64,000 nucleotides of DNA from an uncultured Planctomycetales bacterium (GCA_964572155.1 CAZNDZ010000003.1:202224-266223); one strand, 5' to 3'; positions 2,076 to 24,476 are shown, counted from the first letter of the stretch. A program made the numbers and translations. Notes: generated by a model from the letters alone, not told the origin.

Positions 2076-2076
2076 A

Positions 2077-3396
2077 TTATTTTCCCCTACCAATGCCAAA
2101 ATATTCAAAACCTGATTCTTCTAAAACTTTAGGATCTAAGAAATTTCTTCCGTCGAAGATAACTGGCTGACGCATGGCCACTTGTACCTGACGGAAATTG
2201 ATATCACGAAATTCAGCCCATTCGGTTAAAAGGATCAAGCAATCACAATCCTCGGCAGCCTCATAAGCGTCTTCACAAATTTTTACACCCTTTAAGTCTT
2301 TGCGTGCATTCTCGCCTGCTTTTGGATCATAGGCCTTGATCTTTGCGCCTTCGGCTTGCAGCATGCGGATGATTTCAATGGCTGCGGAATTACGAATATC
2401 ATCGGTGTTGGGTTTAAACGCAATGCCCCACACGCCAATTGTCTTATCCTTGATATTCCACAATTTCTCCTCGATAAAACGCACAAACAAGCGGCGTTGT
2501 TCATCATTGATCAAACGCACGCTTTTGAGTAATGAGAAATCATAACCACTCTTTTCACTCAAACGGATGAAGGCATCGACGTCTTTTGGAAAGCAGCTGC
2601 CACCATAACCAATACCTGCATCTAAAAATTGACGGCCAATGCGCTTGTCTAAACCCATGCCTTCGGACACCATCAAGACATCTGCGCCGACGCGGTCACA
2701 CACTTGAGCCACGGCATTGATAAAAGAAATCTTGGTTGCCAGAAATGAATTAGACGCATGCTTAATCATTTCAGCGGACGCGGTATTGGTGACTAAAATT
2801 TTTGTCTTAAGCGGCTTATAAATCTCACGCAATAAGCCTTCGGCTTTCTTAGACTCGACCCCCAAAACCACACGATCAGGGTTCATGAAATCACTAACCG
2901 CACTACCTTCTTTTAGAAATTCTGGATTAGAAGCCACATCAAAATCTAGCAAGATCTTATGTCCTTTTTTGAACTTTTGCGGCAAGTTTAATTGAATGGT
3001 GCGTCTAATCTTATTTCCTGTCTCAGCAGGAACAGTTGATTTCTCGACGATCAATTTATAGGAATCCATGCTGCGGGCAATTTCACGTGCGACATTTTCA
3101 ATGTACGTTAAATCCGCATCACCATTAGGTTTCGACGGAGTTGGCACGGCTAAAAAGATCACGGTTGATTTAGCTGTGGCATCTTTGATAGAACCGGTGA
3201 AGGATAAACGTTTTTTCTTCACACATTCTTTCATGAGCTCTTGTAAGCCTGGCTCATAAATGGGGATCTCGCCTTTTTTTAACTTCTTGATCTTCTCAGG
3301 ATTATTATCAACACTGATAACATGATGGCCGATATGCGCCAAACAAACACCTGTCACTAAACCCACATATCCTGAACCAATGATTGCAATATTCAT
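2077..3396 (-). CDS. ugd: UDP-glucose 6-dehydrogenase
   Basis: MNIAIIGSGYVGLVTGVCLA...GGSCFPKDV, the canonical Ugd N-terminal Rossmann motif and catalytic Cys motif; 439 aa. Confidence 0.85.
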   Translation of the reverse strand: MNIAIIGSGYVGLVTGVCLAHIGHHVISVDNNPEKIKKLKKGEIPIYEPGLQELMKECVKKKRLSFTGSIKDATAKSTVIFLAVPTPSKPNGDADLTYIENVAREIARSMDSYKLIVEKSTVPAETGNKIRRTIQLNLPQKFKKGHKILLDFDVASNPEFLKEGSAVSDFMNPDRVVLGVESKKAEGLLREIYKPLKTKILVTNTASAEMIKHASNSFLATKISFINAVAQVCDRVGADVLMVSEGMGLDKRIGRQFLDAGIGYGGSCFPKDVDAFIRLSEKSGYDFSLLKSVRLINDEQRRLFVRFIEEKLWNIKDKTIGVWGIAFKPNTDDIRNSAAIEIIRMLQAEGAKIKAYDPKAGENARKDLKGVKICEDAYEAAEDCDCLILLTEWAEFRDINFRQVQVAMRQPVIFDGRNFLDPKVLEESGFEYFGIGRGK

Positions 3397-6602: not shown

Positions 6603-7724
6603 TTATTTAGCTGCTAAACGCTTGCTCTTGGTAAATTCGAGCAATTCTTTGACCATGCTATGCATGCGGGTGGCGGCTTTACGTATTCCTTGAAGACTTT
6701 CTAAATTCTTGGCATCTAAAGTAGGGCCGGCGTGTTGCTCAATGTAAGAACAATAGGCAATCATCATGGTTAAGGGGTTTAAAATATCATGACCCATGAC
6801 ATTGATGAATTTATCGAGTTCATCATTCATTGTTTTTAAATCAGTATTCTGCTTTTCAATGCGCACCTTGTATTCTTCAAGCTTTCGGCTCATTTCATTG
6901 AATGTTTTAGCTAAGTTTGCGACCTCATCATTGGATGTGGCCATGACTTGAACGTTAAAATTACCCTCCCCAACCGATTCAACCGCCCTGCTTAGTTGCT
7001 TGATGGGTCGAACAATTGAGGAAACAATCCAAAATGCCAAAACAAAAGCTAACAAGAACACACCAACTAATAAATATACAAACTTCTGAAATGCGAACTT
7101 TTCCCATTGCTTCGCCTGATCCAGCGACGACATTAACGACTCTTGAACCGTCTTTAATAATTTAGCCACATCTTTGGTGAGCTTATTTTCATCATTCTGA
7201 AACCTTTCTAAATCTTCGATCGATAACTTAAACCCACCTGCCTCGACTTCTTGTAAAAATTTCATAATGCTCGCATCATAATCAGCGCGTACGGCCTCTA
7301 AACGTGTCATCCCTTCGCGAATTTCTAACATGGCAGGCTTTTGCTCATCAACGATATTAAAATTTGATGCCCCAAGCGACAAGGCCTTGGCTTTTTGTGC
7401 ACACGTTGCTGCTTCTTTGGCGTATTGTTCATACGTTGTGCGAATTCCTTTGAGTTGATCTTGCAGGTAACTACTACGGGCAAACGTGGTTTTCTCAAAG
7501 CCCAACTCTTCCGAGATGCTAATCAGCTGTTGTAATAGGACATTCTTTTGTAATTGAATTTGATAGACACTGTTAACGCCACGCATCAAGGCCACATCAA
7601 ACGTGACCATGGCAGAATATTCCGCACGTATGGCACGCATTTGATTTAAACCACTCCACGCAGCAAATGACAACGCGCCAAGCAGTAAAACAATTAACAA
7701 TATAATTTTGTTTGAGATTCTCAT
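6603..7724 (-). CDS. membrane sensor with a periplasmic domain, HAMP and HisKA (DHp) domains but no catalytic HATPase_c domain
   Basis: TM1 (ILLIVLLLGALSFAAW), a ~180-aa periplasmic region, TM2, a HAMP linker, then the H-box MGHDILNPLT. The ORF stops about 60 aa later and a 76-nt intergenic gap follows. Confidence 0.7.
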   Translation of the reverse strand: MRISNKIILLIVLLLGALSFAAWSGLNQMRAIRAEYSAMVTFDVALMRGVNSVYQIQLQKNVLLQQLISISEELGFEKTTFARSSYLQDQLKGIRTTYEQYAKEAATCAQKAKALSLGASNFNIVDEQKPAMLEIREGMTRLEAVRADYDASIMKFLQEVEAGGFKLSIEDLERFQNDENKLTKDVAKLLKTVQESLMSSLDQAKQWEKFAFQKFVYLLVGVFLLAFVLAFWIVSSIVRPIKQLSRAVESVGEGNFNVQVMATSNDEVANLAKTFNEMSRKLEEYKVRIEKQNTDLKTMNDELDKFINVMGHDILNPLTMMIAYCSYIEQHAGPTLDAKNLESLQGIRKAATRMHSMVKELLEFTKSKRLAAK

Positions 7725-8740
7725 GATGACTTATTATATGCGCCAAACGTGATAATACAATTACGACCTGCAGATTTTGCACGATACAAAGCCCAGTCGG
7801 CTTTATCGATTAATTCTTCAGCAGTCTTTCCGTCGGAGGGATATGCAGATATACCAATGCTAATCGTGATGCGTAGCGTCGCATCATAGGCTCGTATCTT
7901 TTTACCTTCAACGGTTTTGCGAATACGTTCAGCAACCAAGGCTGCACCTTGCGCATCCGTATCAGGTAAAACCACACAGAATTCTTCACCACCATAACGA
8001 CCAACAATATCAATCTCACGAACACTTTCTTTAAGCACTAAAGCAATTTGACGTAACACCTCATCACCTGTCAAATGTCCGTACTGATCATTGACCTTCT
8101 TGAAATAATCCGCATCAACCAATAAAAATGCCACCTTGGTCTTACGTAAATGGGAACGTTTGATTTCTTCTTCAAAACGTTCTAAGAAATATCGTCGGGT
8201 GTAAGCCCCTGTTAAGGCATCGGTGATGGCCAAGGTTTCAACTTCTGTGTATAACTTGATGCGCAAATATGCCAACGCAAATTGGTGTGCCAAGATTTCA
8301 AACTTAGGTTTATCCTTCTCAGAAACACCCTTATAAATCAAATACCCTAAATTCTTTTCTTTGCTTTTTAATGCAAAGACAGCAAAACCTGCTGGAATTT
8401 CGTCGGACTGTGGTTCGTGATCAACCATGCGGCAATCGTCGATGCTTAGATTTTCTTTCAACTTGCGTTTAAAGATTTCAAACGCCTCATCTTCTTTAAA
8501 ATGGCGTGTGATTTCTTTGGTCATCTCATAAAGAGTAAAAATCTGCGCAGCCTCACGCTCCAATTTATTTTTCTCTGCTAATATTTTCGTCTTTTGCTCG
8601 ATGATTTTTTGATAGGAGTCCTTGGAACGTAAAACATCCTCATCGGCTTTTTGTTCTAGTTGCATGACCACCATTTGAGCTAAATAGAACACCACGCCAA
8701 TAAATACGATTGCCAATATTATGCATAAGTAGAGCATCAT
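7721..8740 (-). CDS. diguanylate cyclase (TM + coiled coil + GGDEF)
   Basis: GGDEF-domain motifs RYGGEEF and KVNDQYGHLTGD. ATGA overlaps at both ends. Confidence 0.85.
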   Translation of the reverse strand: MMLYLCIILAIVFIGVVFYLAQMVVMQLEQKADEDVLRSKDSYQKIIEQKTKILAEKNKLEREAAQIFTLYEMTKEITRHFKEDEAFEIFKRKLKENLSIDDCRMVDHEPQSDEIPAGFAVFALKSKEKNLGYLIYKGVSEKDKPKFEILAHQFALAYLRIKLYTEVETLAITDALTGAYTRRYFLERFEEEIKRSHLRKTKVAFLLVDADYFKKVNDQYGHLTGDEVLRQIALVLKESVREIDIVGRYGGEEFCVVLPDTDAQGAALVAERIRKTVEGKKIRAYDATLRITISIGISAYPSDGKTAEELIDKADWALYRAKSAGRNCIITFGAYNKSS

Positions 8741-10029
8741 GCTTCACACACCCTGTTGCGGCCAGCTTCCTTGGCCTTATAAAGCGCTTCGTCGGCCTTC
8801 ACAATCAATTCTTCCTTAAGTTGCGCATCCGTTGGAAACGCCGCCACACCAATCGAGGCCGTCACATGTGTTTTCTGACGACGTAAGACAATCTCACGGC
8901 CACTAATTTTCTTTAATATGGCATTTGCAGATGCGACAGCCTTTTCTTTGGAGCAATCTGGCAATAATACACAAAATTCTTCACCACCATAACGACACAC
9001 GAGATCTCCAGGCTCATTAAAATGTTCTGCGATCATCCCTGCGACGGTGCGCAACACAATATCCCCAGCGATATGCCCATAGTTATCGTTATATTTCTTA
9101 AAATAATCCAAGTCAATCATCAAAAAACACAATTCTTTATGCTTTAACACACCGCGATTTACCTCTTGCGTTAAACGCTCCAACATGTAGCGACGCAGAT
9201 ACAAACCTGTCAGGCCATCTCTAATCGCTAAGTCCTCAATCTTTTGATATAACTGTGCATTTTCGATGGCTACGCTTGTGATGTCGGCGATGGTTCGCAA
9301 GAATCTTAAATCATCGGTTGCAAAATGATGGGCGCTGGGGCTATCGATGCGCAAGATTCCCAAGATTTTATCACCAATGACTAAGGGCGCGCTAATCAAT
9401 GACCTTACCTTACGCCCATCTTCATTCATGATCTTCTCGACATCAAAACGAAAATCAACATTGGCATCTTCAACCAACAATGGGTTAAGTGTCTTAACCA
9501 CCCATTGATCAAAAATATCCCCACGCTTGGCTTTTAAATTCACCTGCATTTGGCCTTTTTGAGACGAGGATATGCCAAGCTCACCCGTGCTCGAATGAAA
9601 TAAATAGAGAATGACCGTGATGTCTTTATGGCCAAAAAGTTTATTTACTTCGGCACACAACGTCGCTGAGGTTTCTTCAATACCTAATGACATGCTCAAA
9701 CTCTCGGTTAAATCTTTGAGCTTGCCGTAATTGATAATTTTATTTTTGATGATGGTGATCGTCTTCCACTCTTGATCAATTTCTGCTTTGAGCAAGTTGG
9801 CACGTTCGAAGTAATCTTCTTTTTGAAGGACAATGACGTTTTGTTTGCGTTGCAGGCGTCGATGAAATGCAATGAGCAAACCAATGTTGATCAACAATGC
9901 GGAGGTGATAAAGAAAAACGCCACTTGATGTTTCGTGGCGTAAATAAAGAATGCCGCTAAAGGCACGAGGAAACTAAAGATGACTAAAAAATAAAGTCTA
10001 AATAATGGTCGCTTGGGTTTGAGAATCAA
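8737..10029 (-). CDS. diguanylate cyclase with two TM helices, a GAF-like sensor domain and GGDEF
   Basis: RYGGEEF and DNYGHIAGD motifs, with a GAF-like region upstream (…GILRIDSP…). The start codon is TTG in the ORF track and there is no in-frame ATG before the TM helices. Confidence 0.75.
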
Positions 10030-11962: not shown

Positions 11963-13234
11963 TTAATCCATTTTATAAATGGTTAAACCCGAAAGAACCT
12001 TCGGATAAAAATATGTCGTCTTAGGCGGCATGCGTTCATCATTTAAGGCCACCGCTTTTAATTGCTTCACTAAAACAGGATTTAAAATAAACCCTGCATC
12101 TGCCTTATCTTCATTAACAAAGGCAATGACTTCATCTGGATCTTTAGAATAGGTGATGTCTTCTGACTTCACACCGACTTGATCAAAGATGAATGATTTT
12201 AAGATCGCAGCGTCTAAAGATTTATAATCTTTTGATCCTTCCAACACAACCTTATCAATCAAGGTCTTGCTCTTTAAACGCAATAAATATAAGCCGCTCT
12301 TTAAGCACAAGCCAAAAGCATGTTCGTTTTGACCGGCGCGGGCGAGTAAAACCATCAAATCAGTTTTATTCTTAATCTTATCGATACGGAAATATTGTTC
12401 TAATAAATTCACGCTGATGGGGAACTTTTTGACGATGCGGTGAATTGGGAAAATTTGCAAATCTTTGGAATCCATGTTGGTGTAATAGGCCATGACATAA
12501 TTAAATGGTTCTTTGCCTGTTGGATTCTTAACCTTCTTTAAATGATCTTTTCTAATTTGATTAGCCACCTCAAAGCGATGATGCCCGTCGCAAATAAAAA
12601 TATTTTGACCATCTAATACATCAGCTATCAAGGCAATCTTGGCTGGATCTTCTAAGCGCCAAATCATATGCTTAACTTTATCTTGATCAACTGCTTCTAA
12701 ATATGGTTTTTGGCTGGCTAAGTCTTTTAAGAAAATCTTCTCAACCACATTGTGCTTATCCGCATAGCCAACAAAGATGGAACTTAAATCACTTTTTAAG
12801 GCGCTCCATAGTAAATGACGGTCTGTTTTTGCTGCCGCATGGGTGTGTTCGTGTGGCAATACCTTAACGCCTGAATCATCATTCATGCTAAGCAAAGCCA
12901 AAAACCCTGTGCGGGTATAGCGTTGACCCAAATACTTATAATCTTGTTTATAAAAATACACGCAAGGCACCTTATCTTGAATCAAAACGCCCTTCTTTAA
13001 CCATTCTTCGTAGGTTTTTTGAGCACGGGTGTATTTGTTATCTTTAGCTGTATCTTTAGGGGTTTCTTTGGTTAATTCAAGACGGATGAAGTTATTGGGA
13101 TGTTGCTTATAATAACCTTCTTGCTGTTCTTTGGAAATAACGTCATAGGGAGGACAAATGACACTAGATAAATTCTCTACTTTTTCTTTATTGTAGAAAA
13201 CCGCTTGAAATGGCTTAAGAGCTGACATGAGCAT
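11963..13234 (-). CDS. DUF1015 family protein
   Basis: N-terminal LKPFQAVFYN…CPPYDVIS, characteristic of DUF1015; 423 aa. Confidence 0.65.
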   Translation of the reverse strand: MLMSALKPFQAVFYNKEKVENLSSVICPPYDVISKEQQEGYYKQHPNNFIRLELTKETPKDTAKDNKYTRAQKTYEEWLKKGVLIQDKVPCVYFYKQDYKYLGQRYTRTGFLALLSMNDDSGVKVLPHEHTHAAAKTDRHLLWSALKSDLSSIFVGYADKHNVVEKIFLKDLASQKPYLEAVDQDKVKHMIWRLEDPAKIALIADVLDGQNIFICDGHHRFEVANQIRKDHLKKVKNPTGKEPFNYVMAYYTNMDSKDLQIFPIHRIVKKFPISVNLLEQYFRIDKIKNKTDLMVLLARAGQNEHAFGLCLKSGLYLLRLKSKTLIDKVVLEGSKDYKSLDAAILKSFIFDQVGVKSEDITYSKDPDEVIAFVNEDKADAGFILNPVLVKQLKAVALNDERMPPKTTYFYPKVLSGLTIYKMD

Positions 13235-13308
13235 TCCTTTATCTTTAAAATTAATAAAAATCTGAAACTAAATATTAACAGAAAGATGCGGAAAATGAAA
13301 CTGGAATT

Positions 13309-16161
13309 TTATGTGCTTGCTAACCGGTCTTCTTGGGTTTTTGGAGGGGTTAAACCTAAGAGGTTCCATATATTTACAACAGGCGCAATCTTAAAGATCA
13401 CAGGCGTCAAAGAATCAATCCCTTCACGGCGAACCCGTTTAATCATCGCAGGATCAAGACGCATTTGCACCCCTTGGCCATCCTTACGAATAGCCGTGTT
13501 AGCCTGAGTCTTCATTAAATCGATACCACCATGCGTAGCCATGGCTTGATTAGCATGTTGTTTTCGTTCATAAATCCAACTAATAAAAGCCTGTTGATTG
13601 CTTTTTAGACTTGCAAATTTCTCCCCAATTAAATACGCATCCTGAGAATTCCAAGGATCAACCAAAATGAGATACACACCAGCTAAAAACTGCGCGTCCA
13701 CATCTTCACTTGTTGCTAAAATCTTACGCATTTTATCCTTACCGCTTAATGTTAAATCTTCAAACAGTTCCGGAAAAAATGAATCAGGCTTTTCTTTAGT
13801 CTGTAAATCACCACTATATAGCTCTTCCACAATGCCTTTAAACTTACTTAACAATAGCGCCTCTTGTTCTTCATCAAAAATCAACTCCCTCTTTGAATAC
13901 TGTGCAATATTATATTCAAGCAGAATTCGAGTAAAGTGTTTTAGAAACTTAATTGGCTCACTTTTAACGCTCTCATCATTAAAAACATCTCGGGCAGGCG
14001 CCACAACCAAAGTTTCCTTTCTCAAAGGTGGAACAGCAACTTCTTCCCTAATACTACTTTTAACAATATCAGTTAGAACAAGTGCATTCGGATGCTGGAG
14101 ATCCAAATCTGATAGACGCTTTCTCATGTCACTATTAACAAACTTTCCTACAAAATCTTGCCAATACACACCATCTTGTTTATCAATTTTCTTCGAGAAG
14201 AACTTAACTAATATCGTCAAATTAAGCTGAGCACCTTTTAAGTAGGCCAGCCACACAATCCTTTCCGCTTTACTCATTTTCTTTGGGTCTTGTTTAATCA
14301 ACATGTCAATAAAATCTAGATAATGACCCACATTTTGCTTCAAATGGATAAATCTCTCATCTATCCCTTGACCCTCTTTTAACGATTGATTTATCTTTGC
14401 CACAAGGTCTTTGACGGTAAAAGCATTGATCAATTTCTTTGCTTGCGCACGCATATCTAACATTTTTCCAAACGATTCTTTTCTTAACTTATACACACTT
14501 AAATCCTCAACAGAAATTGTCATCAACTTATCTAACAATACAATTAACTTATCCTCAAAAGGTGTTCGAATAACCGCATCTTGTTGCAATTTTAAATAAT
14601 ACTCATGTGCTTCTATAATGAGTTCTTGTGTACGAAAATCATACAAACGCATTATGAAATTGATGACTTGTAAAATCTCATCCAACCTTGATCGTTCTAC
14701 ATCATTTAAAACATCCGTTTCTAGATCATGTCGTCGTTGTTGAACACCTTTCGCTCGATCAATGATGCCCCAAACTTTTTCTAAATCACCCTTACCAACA
14801 TAATCTTCTACTTGTGCCTTTGAAATATCTGCTCCTGGCTTAAGGCGAACGGTTGTAGGTGAAACCTCCTCCCAAATGCTATATTCCATTTGAGGGTCAA
14901 TGGGTGTTAGTTGAATAGATTGGATCATCAATAAACTTATCGTTGAGATCTCAACTTCTCCACCATTTAATTCATACGCAATGAGCCGTTCAATCTTATT
15001 CAGCTCCCCACTATCAAAGGTAACACCCTCATCAATACCGGTTATAAAACGCGCTGATTTAGCTGCTTCATTAATAGCAGTCATCGCCGCATTTTTGTTC
15101 GACGTAATTAAACCTGCAGATATTTGTTTTAAACCATTTGGTAATTGACCATAAAAATCACGAACTACCGTTGGGGTAGCTGCCATCGCTGCATTTACTC
15201 CTCCAGAAAAATACTTCTTTGGAACTTCTGAAACTGCGCCTTCTTTCACATAATTAAAAACACCTTTTTTGTATGCTTGGACATAACGATCAAAGATTTT
15301 TTCTTTTATATCCTTATCCTTAAGATCAATCCCCTTCACCATTGATTTATCTGCATAAGCTTGATTCAGGATACTGGCTTTTAAATTATTTTTATACCAA
15401 CCTGCCAAGATGATGGCATTAAATATCTGGCGCAATGGCGCAAAATGTTTACCTTCATTGACTTCACGTTCAAGTTCTGGCAATATCACATCACGTATAG
15501 CTTGAGCTGAAGGATTTTGTTTGTGTGTTTGTATGCCATGCTTCTGTGTGGCTAAATAATCTTCTTCTAACATGACCTTTAAATGGCTTTTGGTCACAAA
15601 CGCTGTCTGCCCATGTTCATAAACTTCTGCTTGATCGGCCATGATCCAGACTTTATTAAACGTATTCACAGGTACATTGTTTGTCTTCGCATAAACCTTA
15701 TCCCAAAATGTTTTACCTAATGCTTTCTCTGGATAAATTAATGACGCCGTGAGTTGCTTTAAAATATAATCTTGGGCCAACATATCCCGCCCCATGTCTG
15801 TCTGACCTAACGCATTGTTAATCGTCCTATCCTTTTCATAAGGGCTTAGATTAACCCATAATTCTTTGGCAGGCACAGTCAACGCCGCTAAGAAATATTT
15901 GATTTGCACAGCGCCTTCTTGTTGTAACGCATCATCTTTTAAACCATCTTGCCCTGGATCCATAATGAAATCAAAAAGAAAAGGATTGTCTTTATGAACA
16001 GTAATACCCTTGATCATAGCTGGTTGATAGGCATGGCTTAAACCAACCATACTCCCAGGCTCTGGCAAACTTAGCAGAGGGGCTGCTTGGGCCTGAGGAA
16101 CGGCAACCATGGACACACTCAAGCTCACCACTAAAAAGAAAACCAGTGATTTCTTAAACAT
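13309..16161 (-). CDS. large secreted protein, paralog 1 of an unrecognised three-member family (conserved N/C modules, divergent centre)
   Basis: Start set at MFKKSLVFFLVVSLSVSMVAVPQAQA^APLL by paralogy; the ORF-track start is 36 nt upstream. 950 aa; shares a ~330-aa N domain and ~70-aa C module with 16269..20249 and 20314..24153. Confidence 0.75.
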   Translation of the reverse strand: MFKKSLVFFLVVSLSVSMVAVPQAQAAPLLSLPEPGSMVGLSHAYQPAMIKGITVHKDNPFLFDFIMDPGQDGLKDDALQQEGAVQIKYFLAALTVPAKELWVNLSPYEKDRTINNALGQTDMGRDMLAQDYILKQLTASLIYPEKALGKTFWDKVYAKTNNVPVNTFNKVWIMADQAEVYEHGQTAFVTKSHLKVMLEEDYLATQKHGIQTHKQNPSAQAIRDVILPELEREVNEGKHFAPLRQIFNAIILAGWYKNNLKASILNQAYADKSMVKGIDLKDKDIKEKIFDRYVQAYKKGVFNYVKEGAVSEVPKKYFSGGVNAAMAATPTVVRDFYGQLPNGLKQISAGLITSNKNAAMTAINEAAKSARFITGIDEGVTFDSGELNKIERLIAYELNGGEVEISTISLLMIQSIQLTPIDPQMEYSIWEEVSPTTVRLKPGADISKAQVEDYVGKGDLEKVWGIIDRAKGVQQRRHDLETDVLNDVERSRLDEILQVINFIMRLYDFRTQELIIEAHEYYLKLQQDAVIRTPFEDKLIVLLDKLMTISVEDLSVYKLRKESFGKMLDMRAQAKKLINAFTVKDLVAKINQSLKEGQGIDERFIHLKQNVGHYLDFIDMLIKQDPKKMSKAERIVWLAYLKGAQLNLTILVKFFSKKIDKQDGVYWQDFVGKFVNSDMRKRLSDLDLQHPNALVLTDIVKSSIREEVAVPPLRKETLVVAPARDVFNDESVKSEPIKFLKHFTRILLEYNIAQYSKRELIFDEEQEALLLSKFKGIVEELYSGDLQTKEKPDSFFPELFEDLTLSGKDKMRKILATSEDVDAQFLAGVYLILVDPWNSQDAYLIGEKFASLKSNQQAFISWIYERKQHANQAMATHGGIDLMKTQANTAIRKDGQGVQMRLDPAMIKRVRREGIDSLTPVIFKIAPVVNIWNLLGLTPPKTQEDRLAST
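13376..13482. repeat. 3' coding block of paralog 1, ~90% nucleotide-identical to 16336..16442
   Basis: Hand alignment of …ttaaagatcacaggcgtcaaagaatcaatccc…cgcatttgcacccctt… gives about 10 mismatches in 107 nt. Protein identity across the whole C module is lower. Confidence 0.7.
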
Positions 16162-16268
16162 GTTCAATAAATAACAAATTTTAAAATCAACAACCATTAA
16201 AATACCTCTCTCATTAAAACAAGATGCAAATTAAATTTTCTTCGCTACAAAATCATTACTTCTAGGGG

Positions 16269-19200
16269 TTAATTTAAAGCGATTTTTGTTGCAGCAGATG
16301 TTGGGGGCGTTAACCCTAACAATGACCAAATATTTACAACAGGTGAAACCTTAAAGATCACAGGCGTCAAAGAATCAATCCCCTCACGGCGAACCCGCTC
16401 AATCATCGCCGGATCAATCCGCATTTGCACCCCTTGACCATCTTTTCGTACAGCCGTATTATCCAACGTCTTCTTCAAGTCAATACCACCGTTTGTAACC
16501 ATGGCTGAATTAAAAAACCCTTTAGCAGATGGCAAACCAGCAAAAATACGCTCTTTCCATTGGGGGCTCACGCCTGCAGGTGCTAATTTATCCCATAAAG
16601 AATCCGGATCAATCGTACCATCTTCTAGCCCTGTTTGAATTATGGGAACAATAGATTTCTTTGCTTTCTTGGCATTCTTAATAGCTATCTCAAATTTCTC
16701 TAACAAAATCTTTTTAATTCTATTTCGATATTTTTCAAAGATATCAAACCTAGGATCAGACCCTCCTGAGATTCCTGACAATGCTCTTAACTCACGCTTT
16801 GTTTCACTTAACAAATTAGCCCAAATCCTTATTTCAACTCTACCTAATGGTGCCGTATTGAGCTCTAATAACTTATCTGTAAAATCTAGGTATTGTTTTA
16901 AAACTTCTTCAAATACTTTCACATCCGATGGCCATCCTAATGCATCAAAGATTTGCATATTTAAAACATCTTCCACGTAACCTTCTTCACTAAATAAACC
17001 CAACTGACTTAATGCATCACGAGCATTTAGAACATTTTTAAATTCCACATTTACTGCGACCATTCCTTTATCATTATCATCAAAATGTAAATGCGTAACA
17101 TCGAAGCCTTGAGTAGTATTTGGATCAGCTCCAGTTAAAGAACCTGGGGTTGAATCAGGTTCGCTTAATTTCTTTTCTACCTGAGCTTTCAAATCAGCAG
17201 CCTTAAACGATGCTTTCAAATCTAACAAATCCCTATTAATGTTTTCTTGCCCATAACCATTTAATTGACCATTTTTTAAACGCTTTAGTTTTCTGATCAC
17301 TGCATCTAATAGTTCGAAATTGTTTCTTGATAAATACTTCGGAGCAATTTCTCCCAACGTCTTGGTTGCATCAAGCAACTCTTTTACATCTGAAAGTTTA
17401 TTAATACGATGTGTTAATTTAAGCCTAAGGATGTCCTTCGCATCTTCATAACGTTCTGCTTTAGTCTTAACTTTGACTTGTTCCTTACCCAACATTTTCT
17501 TTAACCCATCCATAATTCCCATGGCAGCATCAGGAGAGCCTTGTAAAACCGCCGGCACTGTATCAAAAGCGCCACCAAAAGCAAGTATTTCTGGTTTAGC
17601 TTTAACGCGATCTATAATGCTTTGAAACCCTTCTACCAAACCACTTAATTCTGGATCCAAACTCAGGCCATTGCCCAATGTTACATCAGAACCTTTGATG
17701 TTAAACTGACCAACGTAAGCTATTGCCATCTGCAATGTCTCATCGAAATTATCTTTATCGAAATTATATTTAAACTCTAATTGTGCAAAAATATCCCTAA
17801 CATTTAAGGCGATTAAAGAATCGTAAACTTTACCATTGCGTAACTCAACCCCGTTATCGTACTCATAAATATCAATCTTAGCTATGTCTTGCATTAATCG
17901 TTGTATTGCTGGATCCGCATGCAAATCGCCCAATAATTTTTGAATGGAATCATCTGACACATGAACATCACCGCTTATGTTATCTCGTTTAATAGGATCT
18001 AAGCCCTGTTCTTTTCTTAATTCATCTGCAGCTCTAGTTACAGCCGCTAACAAAATTGCAAACGTTCTATTTTGATGAATACCATTCTCATCCGTGATAT
18101 TAAAACCACTGCCTCGATACTGACCTAAGAAATTTTCAACATCGCCTACATTTGAGAAATCCTTGATTTGAATAAAATACGCAACAACGTCGGACAATCT
18201 AGCAAGATTCATCACGCCGCCATCTTGAATCTTTGCAAGATATTCACGTGGCGTGGTTGTAAAATCTACACCATTTACGAAATCTCTAATCACTTCTTTA
18301 ATCACTTTAAATTGCTCATCCGTAACAGCCATGGCAGGGTCATGACGACAATAATCCTCAACAGCTTTAGCCAATTTAAGAGAAATCACATCATCAAAAC
18401 TTTCAATCTGTGTTTTTAATTGAATTAATTTCTCGCGATTAATTGATGATTGTTCCGATTTAACTTCTTGAAGGGTGATGATCTGGATATTTAATTGATC
18501 TAAAAGATCCAAGATCATGCCATCCACATCAAATTGTATCGAACCCTTTCCTTCTAAAGTTGCCTTCTCATTGACGCTCTTTAAGAACTTCATCAACGCT
18601 TCAAAAGAAATCTTTGTCGGGTTATGTTTGATCAAATATGCAAATGCGTCCACAGCACTATGAATGTCTTTTTGGGTATTGATCACAATATTCAACCTTC
18701 TTACCGCCGTTTCCTCGTCTATTAAAGAAGCAGAACTTTCTTTAGCATCAACAGTTGCTGATAATGCCCCTGATCCGCTATCCATTAATTCACCGGCGCC
18801 AGTTGGAAATTCTCTATTGCTCCACAAGCGCTTAACAATACTTTTTAAAGCATCTAATTTGGTTATGTCTTCTCTTATGCCACGGGGGATTTTATGCCTA
18901 TTATTAATGAGAAAACTTTTTCTCTTACTTAGAACACTATAAAAAAGCGCCATAAATTCACTGATCTTATTACGTACTTCTGACCCACTCTTACCACGAT
19001 AAAGGATCATTTCATTCATGAACTTCTCAATTAATTCATTTGAAATTGTTGCCTCAGGGTTATCTGTGGCTAATCTCAACATTTCATTAGTTTGAAATCT
19101 GAAATCTGCTTGTGTTTTGATTGGATCCCCAAGCACCATAACTCCGTATTGACGCGCATTCGCTGAAACCTCAACAACCCCAGCTTCCACCATGACCAAC

Positions 19201-20249
19201 GTATCTGAAAATCCTGTACCAGTAAAGCTTTGAACTACCGCCGGATTAACCGCCATCGCAAAATCAACCCCACCTGAAAAATATTTTCTAGGGGTTTTGG
19301 CTTCGTCTTCTTTCACGTAATTGAACACGCCTTTTTTATAGGCTTGTAAATAGCGGTCGAAGATTTGTTGTTTGATGGTTTTGTCTTGAATGTCGATGCC
19401 CTTGACGGTTGATTTATTGGCGTAGACTTCATTGAGCAAACTTGACTTTAAATTATTTTTGTACCAGCCGGCTAAGATGATGGCGTTGAAGATTTGGCGC
19501 AATGGGGCGAAATTCTTGCCTTCGTTTACTTCCTTTTCCAATTGCGGGATGATCACTTCTCTTAATACTGCGGCAGATGTATCGTTTGAGTTTACTGGCG
19601 CGGCGTGTTTTTCTGTGGCTAAATAATCTTGTTCCAACATGACCTTCAAATGCGCTTTGGTGACAAACGCAGTTTGATTGTGTTCGTAGACTTCGGCTTG
19701 ATCAGCCATGATCCAAACTTTATTAAAGGTGTTTACAGGAACTTGGGCATTGCCGAACTTTTGCTTGGTCTTGGCATAGACTTCGTTCCAGAAGGTCTTA
19801 CCTAAGTCTTTTTCAGGATATATTAAGGAAGCGGTGATTTGCTTTAATATATAATCTTGGGCTAAAAGGTCGCGGCCCATATCGGTTTGGCCTAAAGCTT
19901 CATCAACGGTCCTATTTTTTTCGTAGGGTGACAAATTAACCCATAAGGAACTTGCTGGCACGGTTAAGGCAGCTAAGAAGTAGCGGATCAGCCTATCACC
20001 CTCTTGCTTTAACGCAGGTTCTGAGGCATTTTCTTGACCTGGATCCACAATAAAATCAAACAAGAACGGATTATCCTGATTTACCGTTAAACCCTTTAAC
20101 ATCAATGGTTTATACGCGGCGCTTAACCCAACCATGGCGCCTGGTTCAGGAAGGCCTAATAAAGGCGCTGCATAGGCATTTGGCTGTGGCGCTACAATCG
20201 AAAAAGAGACCGCAACGGTTACAAAAATAGATAAAATTTTCTTATACAT
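16269..20249 (-). CDS. large secreted protein, paralog 2 of the same family
   Basis: MYKKILSIFVTVAVSFSIVAPQPNAYA^APLLGLPEPG…; 1326 aa. I used the first ATG (the ORF-track start is TTG). Conserved N and C modules, unique 900-aa centre. Confidence 0.75.
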   Translation of the reverse strand: MYKKILSIFVTVAVSFSIVAPQPNAYAAPLLGLPEPGAMVGLSAAYKPLMLKGLTVNQDNPFLFDFIVDPGQENASEPALKQEGDRLIRYFLAALTVPASSLWVNLSPYEKNRTVDEALGQTDMGRDLLAQDYILKQITASLIYPEKDLGKTFWNEVYAKTKQKFGNAQVPVNTFNKVWIMADQAEVYEHNQTAFVTKAHLKVMLEQDYLATEKHAAPVNSNDTSAAVLREVIIPQLEKEVNEGKNFAPLRQIFNAIILAGWYKNNLKSSLLNEVYANKSTVKGIDIQDKTIKQQIFDRYLQAYKKGVFNYVKEDEAKTPRKYFSGGVDFAMAVNPAVVQSFTGTGFSDTLVMVEAGVVEVSANARQYGVMVLGDPIKTQADFRFQTNEMLRLATDNPEATISNELIEKFMNEMILYRGKSGSEVRNKISEFMALFYSVLSKRKSFLINNRHKIPRGIREDITKLDALKSIVKRLWSNREFPTGAGELMDSGSGALSATVDAKESSASLIDEETAVRRLNIVINTQKDIHSAVDAFAYLIKHNPTKISFEALMKFLKSVNEKATLEGKGSIQFDVDGMILDLLDQLNIQIITLQEVKSEQSSINREKLIQLKTQIESFDDVISLKLAKAVEDYCRHDPAMAVTDEQFKVIKEVIRDFVNGVDFTTTPREYLAKIQDGGVMNLARLSDVVAYFIQIKDFSNVGDVENFLGQYRGSGFNITDENGIHQNRTFAILLAAVTRAADELRKEQGLDPIKRDNISGDVHVSDDSIQKLLGDLHADPAIQRLMQDIAKIDIYEYDNGVELRNGKVYDSLIALNVRDIFAQLEFKYNFDKDNFDETLQMAIAYVGQFNIKGSDVTLGNGLSLDPELSGLVEGFQSIIDRVKAKPEILAFGGAFDTVPAVLQGSPDAAMGIMDGLKKMLGKEQVKVKTKAERYEDAKDILRLKLTHRINKLSDVKELLDATKTLGEIAPKYLSRNNFELLDAVIRKLKRLKNGQLNGYGQENINRDLLDLKASFKAADLKAQVEKKLSEPDSTPGSLTGADPNTTQGFDVTHLHFDDNDKGMVAVNVEFKNVLNARDALSQLGLFSEEGYVEDVLNMQIFDALGWPSDVKVFEEVLKQYLDFTDKLLELNTAPLGRVEIRIWANLLSETKRELRALSGISGGSDPRFDIFEKYRNRIKKILLEKFEIAIKNAKKAKKSIVPIIQTGLEDGTIDPDSLWDKLAPAGVSPQWKERIFAGLPSAKGFFNSAMVTNGGIDLKKTLDNTAVRKDGQGVQMRIDPAMIERVRREGIDSLTPVIFKVSPVVNIWSLLGLTPPTSAATKIALN
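16336..16442. repeat. 3' coding block of paralog 2, near-identical copy of 13376..13482
   Basis: See the partner entry 13376..13482. Confidence 0.7.
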
Positions 20250-20313
20250 GCGCAAAGGATACCATACTTTCCATGGGAATACCAGTTTACGTAACTTGCT
20301 ACCAATATTTGTT

Positions 20314-23300
20314 TTATGGGGGTGTCAGGCCAATCGTTTGCCAAATGTTGGCAATAGGTGTGATATTAAAAATCACCGGCGTCAAAGACTCAATCCCGTC
20401 CCGCTTAAAGCGCTCAATCATAGCAGGATCAATATCCATTTGTACACCATTTTCCAAATCTTTTTTAACCAATGTATTATCAGCCGTAGCTTTTAAATCG
20501 ATACCACCGTATTGATCTGTGGTATTCATGGCCAAGTCCATGCCTCTTAAAGTTGGCGCATTCCAAGTCAACGCATCAAGTCTTGATAATAAAGTTTTAA
20601 GCTGATTTCTCTGTCCTTCTTCAATATACTTATCCTCTAACAATATGGTTACATTTCGTTTAAGCAAATCAATATCATAATCAATTGACTCAAGCACATA
20701 TTGCCTATGCCCGTTGTTAAATGATGCTAATATCTTCTCATATCCCTCGACAGCACTTGTTAAACGCTGCAAGATAAAGCCCACAAATAATGATTTTAAC
20801 TCCTTAGCTTCCTCAATATTTAAGAGCAAGCCCTTATCTATGCTTAACGTTGTCTGTTGTGTCGCTAAAAAATCTTTAAAGGCCAACATGATTTCATGCA
20901 TCGCTTCATTCTTACTCATTTCATTAGCCAAATTCACTAAATAATTTCCAAAGATCTTCGTATTGATGTTCTTGATCCTAAAACTACTTAAAGTAAAGAT
21001 ATCGGTTAAATAGAATACCTTAGCATCTTTCTTATCTTTATACATCGGCGCTAATCGTTGAAACATTACATTTAAATTACTTAAAAACTCTTCCATGTAT
21101 TTGATTTCACGAACATTGTCTTTATTATTGATGCTACGTCGAGCACCATTGATCTTATCCAATAATCCTCGCTCAACTTCCAACCGTCCCCCGATGCTTT
21201 CTTTAACAACTTTTTTACCATCAATGGCATGTTGCAAATCAGCGTTCAACGATGCGCTAACTTCATTTATGGCTTTTTGCCATGCCTCATTTGTATAGGC
21301 ATTTTCCCTTTTAGCCCTTCTACTAACCGCTTTCATCAACTTCTTTGTTTCATCACCCATATGCAATGGACCTTTTCTAGCCAAATGGTATTCGCCACCT
21401 GCTTCCAAAACAACCGCCGGCCCCTCAACTAATTTCTCAAATTCATAAGATCGATCTTTAGGATCTTCGACCTGTGTTAACAATAGAAATGCCCTGCGAT
21501 AACTATTTCTCAACTTCTCTAAATATTCAATTTCAAGACTAAGCCTGAAAACGCGATCATCTAATCTATTCACTGAAGTTCGCAAGCCCTGAAGATTTGA
21601 ACGGCTAAATTCACGCTGTTCAACACCCCTTGAACTAGCAGCGTTCATTGCTTTATCAGGGTAATGCATAAAATCAAATCCACTTCCTCTAAAACCCAAA
21701 CTTCTTAAAACTCTAATCCATACTTCAACTTTTCCCCCATCCATACGTATCGGTTGAATGCCGATCAAATCTTGACCATACTCATTAACAAAACCCTCGA
21801 CTAACAATCTTCCCACATTGCTACGATCACCTTTATTGGCCTCTACAATGTCAATATTCCAACGCTGCTTATCTGAAATCCATGTTGCTAACAATATACC
21901 TTGCGGATTGTTTTTATCTCCAGCATAAAATAAAACAATATCCCCGTCGGGAACGTCTTTATGTCGATCTAAATAATTATTTGTATTAAAAACCCTAACT
22001 GCTGTCTGCCAATTTTTTAAAACTTCTTTAATCTCATCTGTAGTTTCCACATAGTTCGTTTGTGGGGTCGTCATGGCATCATCAGTTGGAACGCTTATCA
22101 AACCTAATTCAACTGCTAAATAAAGCATGTAGTTTGTTCGTTCTTTATCTTTTTCATCTGCTGATAAAATAAACTTTCCGTTAATCAATATTTGCTTAAA
22201 ATATGTTTCTTTGACGGCAAGATCTTGGAATCTTTCCTTTTGTTCTGGTAAACCATCATAATCTGCATATACAGATTCTAGCGATGGTCGATATAGATCG
22301 TTTTTATATACCCACTTAACAGAAATATTTGAATTTCTTCGTTCTACCGTCTTAATAACTCTTCCCTTTAAATCTGCATACGCTTTGGCATCCCAGAACT
22401 TATAATTATTCTTAACATATTCATCATTTAAAAATGGCTCCGCTTGCACACGCAATTCGGCCACAATCTCTTCAAATGTCTTTAAAGGACCACTTATCGG
22501 GTTAGTTTTATTAGCCATTGCTCTATCATTCGACGACATGCGCAAGACAACAAATCCAGCCACCCGTGTTATCTCAACTGGATCATATTCGTCAGTAAAT
22601 GGATTTACGTAATCAAATATTACGACATATTTTCCATCTCGATTCTCCAACTTAAATGCAACATTCTTCCTTGGAAATAACCTAGGATTATCTTCTGAAT
22701 ATTTAACCCATTCACCACCATTAATCCTGTAATGCCCCCATTCAAATTCAATGCGAGAAGTTAATTTTCCTAATAATAACTTAAACTCAGACCTTTTATC
22801 AGCTAACTCAAAAGACACACTTTTGTTCTCATCAGTTAATTGTTTAGAAATCATCGCTGCATCGTTTTTTGTTCTCTTGAATGCCTCTAATTGCTGAATC
22901 AAATCTGATCTCTCTTTAATAATTCTTTCTTTTCGTTCCTGCGATACTTGACTCAATGTGTTTTCATCTAAAAAAGAATCCAATGCTTTTGTTAGTTCAG
23001 CTATGCGTTCTTCCATTTGCTTTAGATTATTTGAATTCATCGCGGCATTTATATTCACCAAACGATCTTTTGACGCTGACATTGCCTCATTAAATTGTCG
23101 CACATCACTTGTCATGTCAGGATTCGCAGCCATACCTGGGTTGACACCGCCGGAGAAGTATTTTCTTGGTGTGATTTGATTATTTTGAGTGTCTTCCTTA
23201 ACAAAATTGAAAACACCTTTTTTGTAGGCTTGCAAATAACGGTTATAGATTTGTTCTTTAATAGTTTTATCATCTAGATCTATGCCTTTGACGGTTGACT

Positions 23301-24153
23301 TGTCGGCATAGACTTGGGTTAACAAGGCGGTTTTAAGATTGTTTTTATACCAGCTGGCTAGGATTAACGCGTTAAAAATTTGACGCAGATTCGCAAAGTT
23401 TTTACCTTCATTAACTTCTTTTTCTAACTCTGGGATGATAATTTCACGGATAATGTTTTGGGTTGTTTTATTTGTTGTTTGAGACGCGATAAATCGCGTC
23501 TCTACGTTATGTTTTTGGGACGCCAAATAATCTTCTTCTAACATGACCTTCAAGTGGGCTTTGGTCACGAAGGCGGTTTGATGGTGTTCGAAGACTTCGG
23601 CTTGGTCGGCGGTGATCCAGACTTTATTAAAGGTGTTAACAGGGATTTGAGTGTTGCCATATAGTTCTTGAGACTTGGCATAGACGCGATCCCAGAATGT
23701 TTTTCCGAGTTCTTTTTCAGGATAAATGAGCGAGGCGGTGATTTGTTTTAAAATGTAGTCTTGGGCTAAAAGGTCGCGGCCCATATCGGTTTGGCTTAAG
23801 GCTTCGGGTGCGGTCTTGTCTTTTTCATATGGCGATAAGTTGACCCACCAATCTTTTTCTGGGATGGCTAAACTTGCGAGGAAGTATTTGATTAACTTAT
23901 CCCCTTCGGCTTTTAAGGCCTCGCCTTGGAGTCGGTCTTGGCCAACATCTACAATAAAATCAAATTGGAATGGATTTGTCTTTGAGACCGTCAAACCCTT
24001 GATCATGGCTGGTGCAAACGGGGTGCTTAGAGAAACCATCTTTCCTGGCTCTGGCAAACCCAATAAAGGCGCGGCATAAGACTTTTGAGGAAGAATTATA
24101 GACGTTGCCGTAAATGCGACAATTAAGATGTAAATAAGGGATTTTCTATACAT
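20314..24153 (-). CDS. large secreted protein, paralog 3 of the same family
   Basis: MYRKSLIYILIVAFTATSIILPQKSYA^APLLGLPEPG…; 1279 aa; conserved N and C modules, unique centre. Confidence 0.75.
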   Translation of the reverse strand: MYRKSLIYILIVAFTATSIILPQKSYAAPLLGLPEPGKMVSLSTPFAPAMIKGLTVSKTNPFQFDFIVDVGQDRLQGEALKAEGDKLIKYFLASLAIPEKDWWVNLSPYEKDKTAPEALSQTDMGRDLLAQDYILKQITASLIYPEKELGKTFWDRVYAKSQELYGNTQIPVNTFNKVWITADQAEVFEHHQTAFVTKAHLKVMLEEDYLASQKHNVETRFIASQTTNKTTQNIIREIIIPELEKEVNEGKNFANLRQIFNALILASWYKNNLKTALLTQVYADKSTVKGIDLDDKTIKEQIYNRYLQAYKKGVFNFVKEDTQNNQITPRKYFSGGVNPGMAANPDMTSDVRQFNEAMSASKDRLVNINAAMNSNNLKQMEERIAELTKALDSFLDENTLSQVSQERKERIIKERSDLIQQLEAFKRTKNDAAMISKQLTDENKSVSFELADKRSEFKLLLGKLTSRIEFEWGHYRINGGEWVKYSEDNPRLFPRKNVAFKLENRDGKYVVIFDYVNPFTDEYDPVEITRVAGFVVLRMSSNDRAMANKTNPISGPLKTFEEIVAELRVQAEPFLNDEYVKNNYKFWDAKAYADLKGRVIKTVERRNSNISVKWVYKNDLYRPSLESVYADYDGLPEQKERFQDLAVKETYFKQILINGKFILSADEKDKERTNYMLYLAVELGLISVPTDDAMTTPQTNYVETTDEIKEVLKNWQTAVRVFNTNNYLDRHKDVPDGDIVLFYAGDKNNPQGILLATWISDKQRWNIDIVEANKGDRSNVGRLLVEGFVNEYGQDLIGIQPIRMDGGKVEVWIRVLRSLGFRGSGFDFMHYPDKAMNAASSRGVEQREFSRSNLQGLRTSVNRLDDRVFRLSLEIEYLEKLRNSYRRAFLLLTQVEDPKDRSYEFEKLVEGPAVVLEAGGEYHLARKGPLHMGDETKKLMKAVSRRAKRENAYTNEAWQKAINEVSASLNADLQHAIDGKKVVKESIGGRLEVERGLLDKINGARRSINNKDNVREIKYMEEFLSNLNVMFQRLAPMYKDKKDAKVFYLTDIFTLSSFRIKNINTKIFGNYLVNLANEMSKNEAMHEIMLAFKDFLATQQTTLSIDKGLLLNIEEAKELKSLFVGFILQRLTSAVEGYEKILASFNNGHRQYVLESIDYDIDLLKRNVTILLEDKYIEEGQRNQLKTLLSRLDALTWNAPTLRGMDLAMNTTDQYGGIDLKATADNTLVKKDLENGVQMDIDPAMIERFKRDGIESLTPVIFNITPIANIWQTIGLTPP

Positions 24154-24206: not shown

Positions 24207-24476
24207 TTAGCTTGGATGGCACGCACAACCGCCGCCACAAGAGCCTGAAGCAGGGTTTGCGGCTGGTTTTGGAGCCTCGCTGGGTGCGGGTTTGTTCTTA
24301 TAATCGGTTTGATAAAAGCCTGTGCCCTTAAAAATCATGCCTGAACCGCCACCAATCAAACGCGATAATTTATTTTTACCGCATTTGGGACACTTGGTTA
24401 ATTTAGCATCGGTCATGCTTTGAAATTCTTCAAACACATGGCCACACGCAGAACATTCATAATCATAATTAGGCAT
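24207..24476 (-). CDS. FmdB-family zinc-ribbon protein
   Basis: YECSACGHVFE…CPKCG motif; Gly/Cys-rich tail. Confidence 0.7.
   Translation of the reverse strand: MPNYDYECSACGHVFEEFQSMTDAKLTKCPKCGKNKLSRLIGGGSGMIFKGTGFYQTDYKNKPAPSEAPKPAANPASGSCGGGCACHPS

Follow-up and report, generated by a model that had tools for sequence, protein, structure and literature searches.

We analysed a window of 64,000 nt (the whole stretch of DNA under study; all coordinates are positions within it) from an assembly labelled as an uncultured Planctomycetales bacterium (GCA_964572155.1 CAZNDZ010000003.1:202224-266223), in which three neighbouring minus-strand genes, here called A, B and C, encode large proteins with constant ends and unrelated middles. 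A sequence-only reading had proposed three consecutive same-strand paralogues of 950, 1326 and 1279 aa, and all three open reading frames (ORFs) were recovered where it had placed them. On balance, and with modest confidence, we favour the hypothesis that these genes are tandem paralogues of an undescribed, Omnitrophota-specific family that acts as a modular, Sec-exported carrier with an exchangeable payload. According to this hypothesis, a cleavable signal peptide would carry the protein over the inner membrane, after which an N module (~300 aa, from the mature N-terminus to KYFSGGV) and a C module (~60–70 aa, from GGIDL to the protein end) would handle it outside the cytoplasm through folding, retention, outer-membrane passage or docking, and would be recognised by the cell envelope or by the target. 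The middle would be an exchangeable payload made up of a single autonomous domain or several, parted from each other and from the constant modules by the motif D-x-A-M-[T/A], which is perhaps a processing site. The payload would be placed at or inside a second cell that serves these episymbiotic nanobacteria as host or prey, and its content would vary with ecological need.

The constant modules of A, B and C are closely related to one another. In pairwise BLASTP comparisons, the N modules share 66–71% identity (E = 1e-165 to 1e-179) and the C modules (64–73 aa) share 62–77% identity (E = 1e-29 to 1e-42), and every motif quoted in the sequence-only reading is present in the alignment. The middles (878, 925 and 555 aa) had no significant BLASTP similarity to each other, with a best E-value of 0.02 over 35 aa beside the N boundary. 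When concatenated, they had no match in a collection of 5.8 billion clusters; individually, they had no match among PDB sequences or in Pfam and contained no recognisable domain. Compared to ~360 family members, the only match was between the distal half of the A payload and P0261, at 31%. The earlier view that the central regions are unrelated is thus borne out. Their description as mostly helical or low-complexity held in part: low complexity was not found, a helical fold was modelled for C, and A has stretches that look strand-rich by eye. The full-length model of C gave only generic helical structural matches, to its middle, which is modelled at low confidence.

We found no further copy of either module elsewhere in the window with tblastn, and each of A, B and C is a singleton at 90% identity among ~15 billion proteins. 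The DNA of the conserved modules is 66–82% identical, without long identical tracts. These values give no sign of recent gene conversion, which was rejected, and the duplication is therefore old; A, B and C appear to have arisen locally, between dnaJ and a DUF1015 gene.

Beyond the window, the search for the family returned thousands of relatives with varied payloads. The N module had 1,223 matches in a word-indexed collection, where every named match is annotated as 'hypothetical' and all but two belong to Candidatus Omnitrophota, the exceptions being a hydrothermal-vent metagenome record and a 'Pacearchaeota' record. Species genomes contain at least 589 loci, several per genome. An exhaustive HMMER search, whose profile was meant to be C-only and became an N+C profile through sequence weighting, returned 8,538 clusters at 50% identity (5,154 at E ≤ 1e-30), and its top matches, 533–3,551 aa in length, are covered from roughly residue 5 through to the protein end. 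A word-indexed search with the C module alone gave three matches, by a method that is insensitive for an 80-aa query. Judged by these searches, the family is very large, undescribed and specific to the Omnitrophota. Member lengths run from 533 aa to beyond 3,700 aa, and members commonly stand in tandem, in twos or threes.

The two constant modules occur together. In 80 fetched loci they were strictly coupled and the C module was never found without an N module; each apparent 'C-only' ORF was either an interrupted gene or an upstream tandem member truncated at the edge of its locus. The C module is present once only, 0–30 aa from the C-terminus, in 147 of 148 representatives. We define family members by a Sec leader followed by L.LP.PG and the N module, by a single C module within 30 aa of the C-terminus and by [DN]-x-[AG]-M junctions past the N module, ahead of the C module and within the payload, and all three window proteins carry each of these features. 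The arrangement read from the window, with constant ends around a swappable middle and interchangeable cargo, is supported at the level of the family, where the same N and C modules surround unrelated middles in relatives.

Many of the metagenome-assembled genomes (MAGs) that bear family members are labelled 'uncultured Planctomycetales' (loci L001, L004, L007, L008 and others), and P0081 is labelled 'Candidatus Pacearchaeota archaeon'. Such contigs probably come from Omnitrophota and were mislabelled or mis-binned, and the archaeal label could reflect an episymbiont co-binned with its host. The DnaK encoded in the window is 75% identical to Omnitrophota MAG sequences.

We characterized the payloads of relatives by Pfam scans of 63 representatives (33 + 30), in which many middles proved to be whole proteins of cytoplasmic type. 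Metabolic payloads include PGI (E = 6e-199), phosphoglucomutase (PGM), isocitrate lyase (ICL), malate synthase and hexokinase, together with glutamate/leucine dehydrogenase (GDH), alanine dehydrogenase, aminotransferase, transaldolase, GHMP kinase, inositol monophosphatase, UDPGP and aldose epimerase. Regulatory and repeat payloads include GGDEF, receiver, sigma54-AAA, XRE HTH, TPR and HEAT domains, and a Fic domain occurs in the tandem neighbour of a hexokinase member. In P0153, the leader and N module are followed by a junction at M499, a full PGI (residues 560–1110; E = 2e-182 to a solved Vibrio PGI), a junction at M1139, a full PGM (1154–1673), junctions at M1730 and M1822, and the C module. 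In P0187, malate synthase and ICL lie in neighbouring junction-delimited segments. A 33-kb contig (L081, 8001–21510) holds three tandem members that differ in payload: one with a complete eukaryote-type hexokinase, one with Fic, in which the C module is divergent and D.AM sites are lacking, and one truncated where the contig ends. The catalytic signatures of the enzyme payloads were intact.

These payloads bear on a first alternative, a variable surface, adhesin or surface-layer (S-layer)-type family whose N and C modules anchor in the envelope and whose non-enzymatic middle is diversified by phages, hosts or competitors. A signal peptide with constant ends and multi-copy tandem arrays would be expected of such a family as well; 100 of the middles in 201 complete members had no relative in the sample, those of the window are orphans (that of C modelled as helical), and some payloads are TPR or HEAT repeats. 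However, many middles are complete conserved enzymes with intact catalytic motifs (PGI, hexokinase, ICL and PGM), a sign of purifying selection on activity rather than of diversifying selection on an epitope, and the pairs PGI + PGM and malate synthase + ICL are pathway-coherent. Because it fits the enzyme payloads poorly, we consider the surface family improbable.

We examined the leaders of 201 members. In 199 of them, an n-region with K/R precedes a hydrophobic core; the net charge is +2.5 ahead of the core and −0.3 behind it, and the consensus P-x-A-x-A lies three residues ahead of the conserved L.LP.PG. Enzyme-bearing members also carry this leader. In A, B and C, the leader has a K/R n-region, a 16-residue hydrophobic core and P-x-(A/S)-x-A before AP, in agreement with the conserved Sec-type leader and A.A site proposed earlier, and the signal peptidase (SPase) cleavage sites were placed by the A-x-A rule. 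The positive-inside rule and the −3/−1 rule are the basis for calling signal peptide topology and cleavage. Because the family's leaders fit both rules, they are predicted to be cleaved Sec signal peptides. A hydropathy scan found no second hydrophobic segment in A, B or C. The scan flagged 8 of 209 members for a transmembrane (TM)-like segment shortly before the C module, seen by eye at residues ~1822–1845 of P0192 and ~383–420 of P0057, and topology may differ between subfamilies.

Alternatively, the leader could act as an uncleaved anchor or the protein could be retained, so that the family forms an inner-membrane-tethered scaffold for the producer's own metabolism and displays its enzymes as fused metabolons on the cytoplasmic face. 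The need of the payloads for ATP, NAD(P), CoA, pyridoxal phosphate or DNA is consistent with such a location, and the Nielsen & Lui 2026 preprint prefers cytoplasmic-face anchoring for TM-only giants of similar enzyme content. Yet the positive-inside rule and the conserved A-x-A predict export of everything past the leader, the window proteins lack a second hydrophobic segment, and a scaffold leaves the extreme C-terminal module and the junction motif unexplained. According to the same preprint, ICL and malate synthase are missing from all 176 complete Omnitrophota genomes, hexokinase is found in 25 of 176 and PGI in 67 of 176, and the tricarboxylic acid cycle is fragmentary. The absence of ICL and malate synthase and the sporadic presence of hexokinase and PGI indicate that the payload enzymes are accessory rather than core. 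Consequently, we regard a scaffold for the producer's own metabolism as rather unlikely.

The N module contains invariant aromatic and charged residues (WVNLSPYE, GRD.L.QDY.LKQ.TAS, FNKVW and E.EVN.G.NF..LRQ). An AlphaFold model of the B N module, built with the family alignment, has a mean predicted local distance difference test score (pLDDT) of 79 and a predicted template modelling score of 0.74, and shows a mixed alpha/beta fold with a four-stranded sheet packed on long helices. Foldseek found no structural neighbour for this model; a 123-sequence N-module profile found nothing real among PDB sequences, its single match being a low-complexity one to huntingtin; and A, B and C had no match in Pfam, NCBIfam, PHROGs or PADLOC. 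The N domain therefore lies outside characterised families, as had been supposed from the window, and the two outcomes named in advance as contrary to that view, an N domain in a known family and homologous middles, were both checked and neither occurred. The non-significant top Foldseek matches of the B N module were mostly ClyA-family alpha-pore-forming toxins (NheA, MakB, MakE, ClyA and Cry6Aa) and colicin Ia. At a TM score of 0.13, they are probably chance matches between helices; a membrane-active N module, if true, would suit a delivery role.

The C module follows the pattern GGIDL...DG.G[VI].M..DPAM......G...PVI..I.P......GL and is modelled as beta-alpha-beta, with a pLDDT of 76–87 over residues 881–910 in the full-length model of C. 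Subunits of a polymer (a fibre, sheath or lattice) could have a similar design, whereby each subunit would use its mature N-terminal peptide (LxLPxPGxMV) or its N module to bind the C module of its neighbour, and the payloads would decorate the assembly. The strict N–C coupling with one C module per protein, the conserved extended peptide directly past the cleavage site and the confidently modelled C module are all in keeping with this. However, oligomerisation is without support, the conserved-neighbour search across 80 loci gave no chaperone/usher-like or sortase-like gene, and payloads of up to 3,000 aa would be awkward in a regular polymer. We consider the polymer very unlikely.

A recurrent [DN]-x-[AG]-M motif across the middles had been overlooked in the sequence-only reading. 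The dipeptide AM is the most enriched one after the N module (978 observed and 318 expected, or 3.1-fold), with D at −2 in 60% of cases and T/A after it. The density of D.AM is 3.52 per 1000 aa in payloads, compared to 0.096 in the other ORFs of the same loci (37-fold), and 17,327 aa from other ORFs of the window contain none. After the N modules of A, B and C, a region that includes the C module, AM occurs 9, 5 and 4 times when ~1.7, 1.7 and 1.2 are expected, which is 3- to 5-fold over shuffles; their payloads contain 9, 5 and 3 [DN]-x-[AG]-M sites, respectively.

The placement of D.AM follows the domain layout. Where homology blocks shared between members begin or end, a D.AM site is no more than 15 aa away in 36% of cases (12.6% expected), the number of sites grows with payload length (rho 0.38, p 3e-8), and a site is found within 60 aa after the N module in 69% of members and within 40 aa before the C module in 58%. 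The codons of D.AM sites vary, indicating selection on the peptide. A DNA-level role, either as a recombination site or as a relic start codon, was rejected since the codons vary and the Met is not at the enzymes' own first residues. On these sequence statistics, D-x-A-M-[T/A] is a junction that brackets payload domains, and it may be a processing site. The tetrapeptide PAMI is also found within both constant modules, as Y.PAMIKG near the mature N-terminus and as DPAMIER in the C module.

We also considered whether the fusions are an evolutionary by-product, created when a hypervariable or mobile locus captures host genes in frame and the products are tolerated without a collective function, or else chimeras of assembly or annotation. 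The three genes lie in an ordinary chromosomal region, between hrcA-grpE-dnaK-dnaJ and DUF1015-accD. Occupancy of this dnaJ/DUF1015 site differs among syntenic genomes, and so do the payloads there (L065 has no member, L064 a single one whose payload is TPR, L014 at least one and the window three), and the GC content of the three-gene block (12001–24000) is slightly lower, at 0.37–0.395, than the 0.41–0.45 of the flanking housekeeping genes. Both observations are consistent with a by-product, as are the many hypervariable loci with housekeeping cargo that the abstract of Nielsen & Lui 2026 describes in Omnitrophota genomes. However, the reading frame is kept from leader to C module in thousands of clusters, the catalytic motifs are intact, the junction motif is conserved as a peptide, and the contigs bearing fusions are long, with examples of 33 kb, 305 kb and 1.02 Mb. 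A by-product or chimera is accordingly the most improbable of the explanations that we weighed.

Returning to the modular carrier, the destination of its payload would follow from biochemistry. Because the payload enzymes need ATP, NAD(P), CoA or DNA and would be unusable in the periplasm, the payload is probably bound for the cytoplasm of another cell or for the cell–cell interface. Such a destination would suit the Omnitrophota, which have been proposed to live as predators or in dependence on a host (PMC10066038), and has a precedent in Chlamydia (PMC9251005, PMC4829429). The enzyme payloads suggest a new route out of the cell for host-dependent bacteria.

Several observations weigh against the carrier. 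Export is predicted from signal-peptide features. The conserved-neighbour search across 80 loci found no outer-membrane channel, protease or sortase-like partner gene. With regard to cleavage at the junctions, 28 of 201 members have no D.AM site, and the PAMI flavour of the junction lies inside the N and C modules, where cutting would destroy them. The payload census covers 63 of thousands of clusters, and for A, B and C the middles may be read as cargo by analogy with relatives.

A broader version of the hypothesis, which we put forward as a doubtful extension, is a phylum-wide delivery platform. Here, ultra-small, host-dependent Omnitrophota would use a single Sec-dependent carrier to send regulators, Fic domains and complete metabolic enzymes out to their host or prey, or into it. 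The enzymes would include those of hexose-phosphate interconversion and the glyoxylate shunt as well as amino-acid dehydrogenases. The payloads, released by cleavage at the junctions, would re-route host metabolites toward importable compounds. The N and C modules would then constitute a new translocation or docking device without a relative among known secretion systems.

The features of the three genes are listed in Table 1. Two start sites have alternatives: the mechanical ORF of B begins at a TTG at 20255, and C has an in-frame upstream ATG at 16197 that would yield the 962-aa form found in public record P0212. The intergenic gaps are 64 nt (58 nt counted from the TTG start) and 107 nt. 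A promoter and terminator scan performed no better than shuffles.

Table 1. Coordinates of genes A, B and C, their modules and their junction sites within the 64,000-nt window
Feature	Coordinates	Strand	Residues and remarks
Gene A	20314..24153	-	1279 aa; stop codon 20314-20316; identical to public record P0195
A signal peptide (Sec)	24073..24153	-	1-27; predicted cleavage SYA/AP
A N module	23143..24072	-	28-337; 66-68% identical to B and C; fits family profile
A payload	20509..23142	-	338-1215 (878 aa); orphan
A C module	20317..20508	-	1216-1279; internal DPAM 20419-20430
A junction-type NPGM	23131..23142	-	338-341; adjoins N module end
A junction-type NEAM	23080..23091	-	355-358
A junction-type NAAM	23038..23049	-	369-372
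A junction DAAM	22852..22863	-	431-434
A junction DRAM	22516..22527	-	543-546
A junction DDAM	22072..22083	-	691-694
A junction DKAM	21646..21657	-	833-836
A junction-type NEAM	20899..20910	-	1082-1085
A junction DLAM	20527..20538	-	1206-1209; 7 residues ahead of C module
Gene B	16269..20249	-	1326 aa from ATG; stop codon 16269-16271; identical to public record P0167
B signal peptide (Sec)	20169..20249	-	1-27; predicted cleavage AYA/AP
B N module	19266..20168	-	28-328
B payload	16491..19265	-	329-1253 (925 aa); orphan
B C module	16272..16490	-	1254-1326; internal DPAM 16404-16415
B junction DFAM	19254..19265	-	329-332; adjoins N module end
B junction DPAM	18330..18341	-	637-640
B junction DAAM	17520..17531	-	907-910
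B junction-type DKGM	17061..17072	-	1060-1063
B junction-type NSAM	16500..16511	-	1247-1250; 4 residues ahead of C module
Gene C	13309..16161	-	950 aa from MFKK; stop codon 13309-13311
C signal peptide (Sec)	16084..16161	-	1-26; predicted cleavage AQA/AP
C N module	15196..16083	-	27-322
C payload	13531..15195	-	323-877 (555 aa); orphan; modelled helical, low confidence
C C module	13312..13530	-	878-950; internal DPAM 13444-13455
C junction-type NAAM	15184..15195	-	323-326; adjoins N module end
C junction-type NAAM	15082..15093	-	357-360
C junction-type NQAM	13540..13551	-	871-874; 4 residues ahead of C module
PAMI in N module			A 46-52; C 45-51
PAMI in C module			A 1242-1247; B 1279-1284; C 903-908

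Between dnaJ and gene A lies an 89-aa FmdB-type zinc-ribbon ORF with two CxxC pairs (24207–24476, minus strand). The same small gene follows dnaJ in L065 and thus marks a conserved edge of the insertion site. The window also contains an LptD gene, from which it follows that the organism is diderm. Among the neighbours of family genes elsewhere, generic PAS kinases and a MacB-type ABC transporter (9 of 80 loci) were rejected as dedicated partners. The transporter is a fusion of ABC_tran, MacB_PCD and FtsX, encoded on the same strand ~3.4 kb from the family genes (912–2951 in L026, and in eight other loci). The window lacks it, and in certain lineages it could serve the family as a partner for periplasmic extraction or for export. 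Other features of the window, all on the minus strand, are two tandem UDP-glucose/GDP-mannose dehydrogenase paralogues (783–3396), an ORF with HAMP and HisKA but no ATPase domain, with a tandem pair of GGDEF genes after it (6603–10029), and a rubrerythrin-VIT1 fusion (41332–42285).

The Omnitrophota are widespread uncultured nanobacteria that are thought to be episymbionts or predators, and a family of thousands of clusters, with several copies per genome, has no annotation in the four databases searched. The family offers a handle on how these bacteria act on their hosts: the fixed head and tail find its members, the junction motif predicts processing sites and the payloads name candidate activities (PGI, PGM, hexokinase, ICL plus malate synthase, and Fic). 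If export and delivery are true, it would be a new protein-delivery route between prokaryotic cells, and its effectors would be metabolic, not toxic. The two constant modules could furthermore be put to use as a natural chassis by which any chosen cargo is exported. If the proteins instead stay in the envelope, the family is still among the largest uncharacterised ones of a major candidate phylum.

Known export systems share individual features with this family. Type V autotransporters have a beta-barrel of ~250–300 aa or a two-partner secretion (TPS) domain; no Pfam match to either was found, the C module has 60–73 aa and the N module is mixed alpha/beta. Flagellin-like proteins, which also have constant ends and a hypervariable middle, are likewise without a Pfam match (Flagellin_N/Flagellin_C), and the Sec leader is unlike flagellin export. 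Polymorphic toxins (CDI, Rhs and MafB) are also multi-copy, with a constant trafficking part and a variable part exchanged by recombination. Here, however, the variable part is internal and the C-terminus constant, which upholds the suggestion of a reversed polymorphic-toxin architecture. The absence of immunity-like small ORFs between the genes was likewise upheld: no immunity gene lies downstream, as both gaps are devoid of ORFs. The payloads are mostly metabolic enzymes, and only Fic is toxin-like.

The cargo of the Bacteroidota type IX secretion system (T9SS) similarly has a Sec leader, diverse content of varied size and one small conserved domain at the extreme C-terminus. The C module had no Pfam or NCBIfam match at E ≤ 1 to T9SS C-terminal domain models (Por_Secre_tail/TIGR04131), and none of the machinery (porK/L/M/N and sov) was seen among the ORFs scanned in the 64-kb window. 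T9SS cargo belongs to another phylum, lacks the N module to which the C module is always coupled here, and consists of extracellular-type enzymes and adhesins rather than hexokinase, PGI or ICL.

MARTX toxins have constant ends around an exchangeable effector array, whose inter-domain sites are cut after Leu by an internal cysteine protease domain (CPD). Resemblance to this design is found at the level of the family, in a central array of exchangeable autonomous domains between constant ends and in short inter-domain sites, since D-x-A-M brackets payload domains. N- and C-terminal RTX-type glycine-rich repeats (RtxA/HemolysinCabind) gave no Pfam match at E ≤ 1 in A, B and C and none in the 63 relatives, and the MARTX cysteine protease (Peptidase_C80) was absent from all Pfam scans of both. 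MARTX toxins use type I secretion without a Sec leader, whereas 199 of 201 members and A, B and C have a Sec/SPase I leader. The constant parts here are far smaller (~300 + ~65 aa) and unrelated in sequence and fold, the payloads are largely central-metabolic enzymes rather than cytoskeleton or GTPase toxins, and cleavage is only putative.

Functionally, Chlamydia trachomatis exports its own PGM (CT295) and glycogen enzymes, so that Glc6P (glucose 6-phosphate) forms outside the bacterial cell and is then taken up (PMC9251005, PMC4829429). It is host-dependent and belongs to the related PVC (Planctomycetes–Verrucomicrobia–Chlamydiae) group, and several payloads described here (PGM, PGI, hexokinase and UDPGP) also converge on hexose phosphates. 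In contrast, its type III signals are borne by stand-alone enzymes, with no carrier modules, polyprotein or junction motif.

Similar in content are the giant 'multi-enzyme metabolic cluster' proteins of the Omnitrophota themselves, which Nielsen & Lui 2026 and West-Roberts et al. 2023 describe as signal-peptide- or TM-bearing chains of cytoplasm-type enzymes (hexokinase, PGM, ROK, receiver and GNAT). Term searches of those two preprints gave no description of conserved N and C modules or of a junction motif. Such giants are defined by lengths of at least 10,000 aa, compared to 950–1326 aa for the window proteins and 533 to more than 3,700 aa for the family. If its export and delivery are true, the modular carrier would offer an explanation for these enzyme-laden giant proteins.

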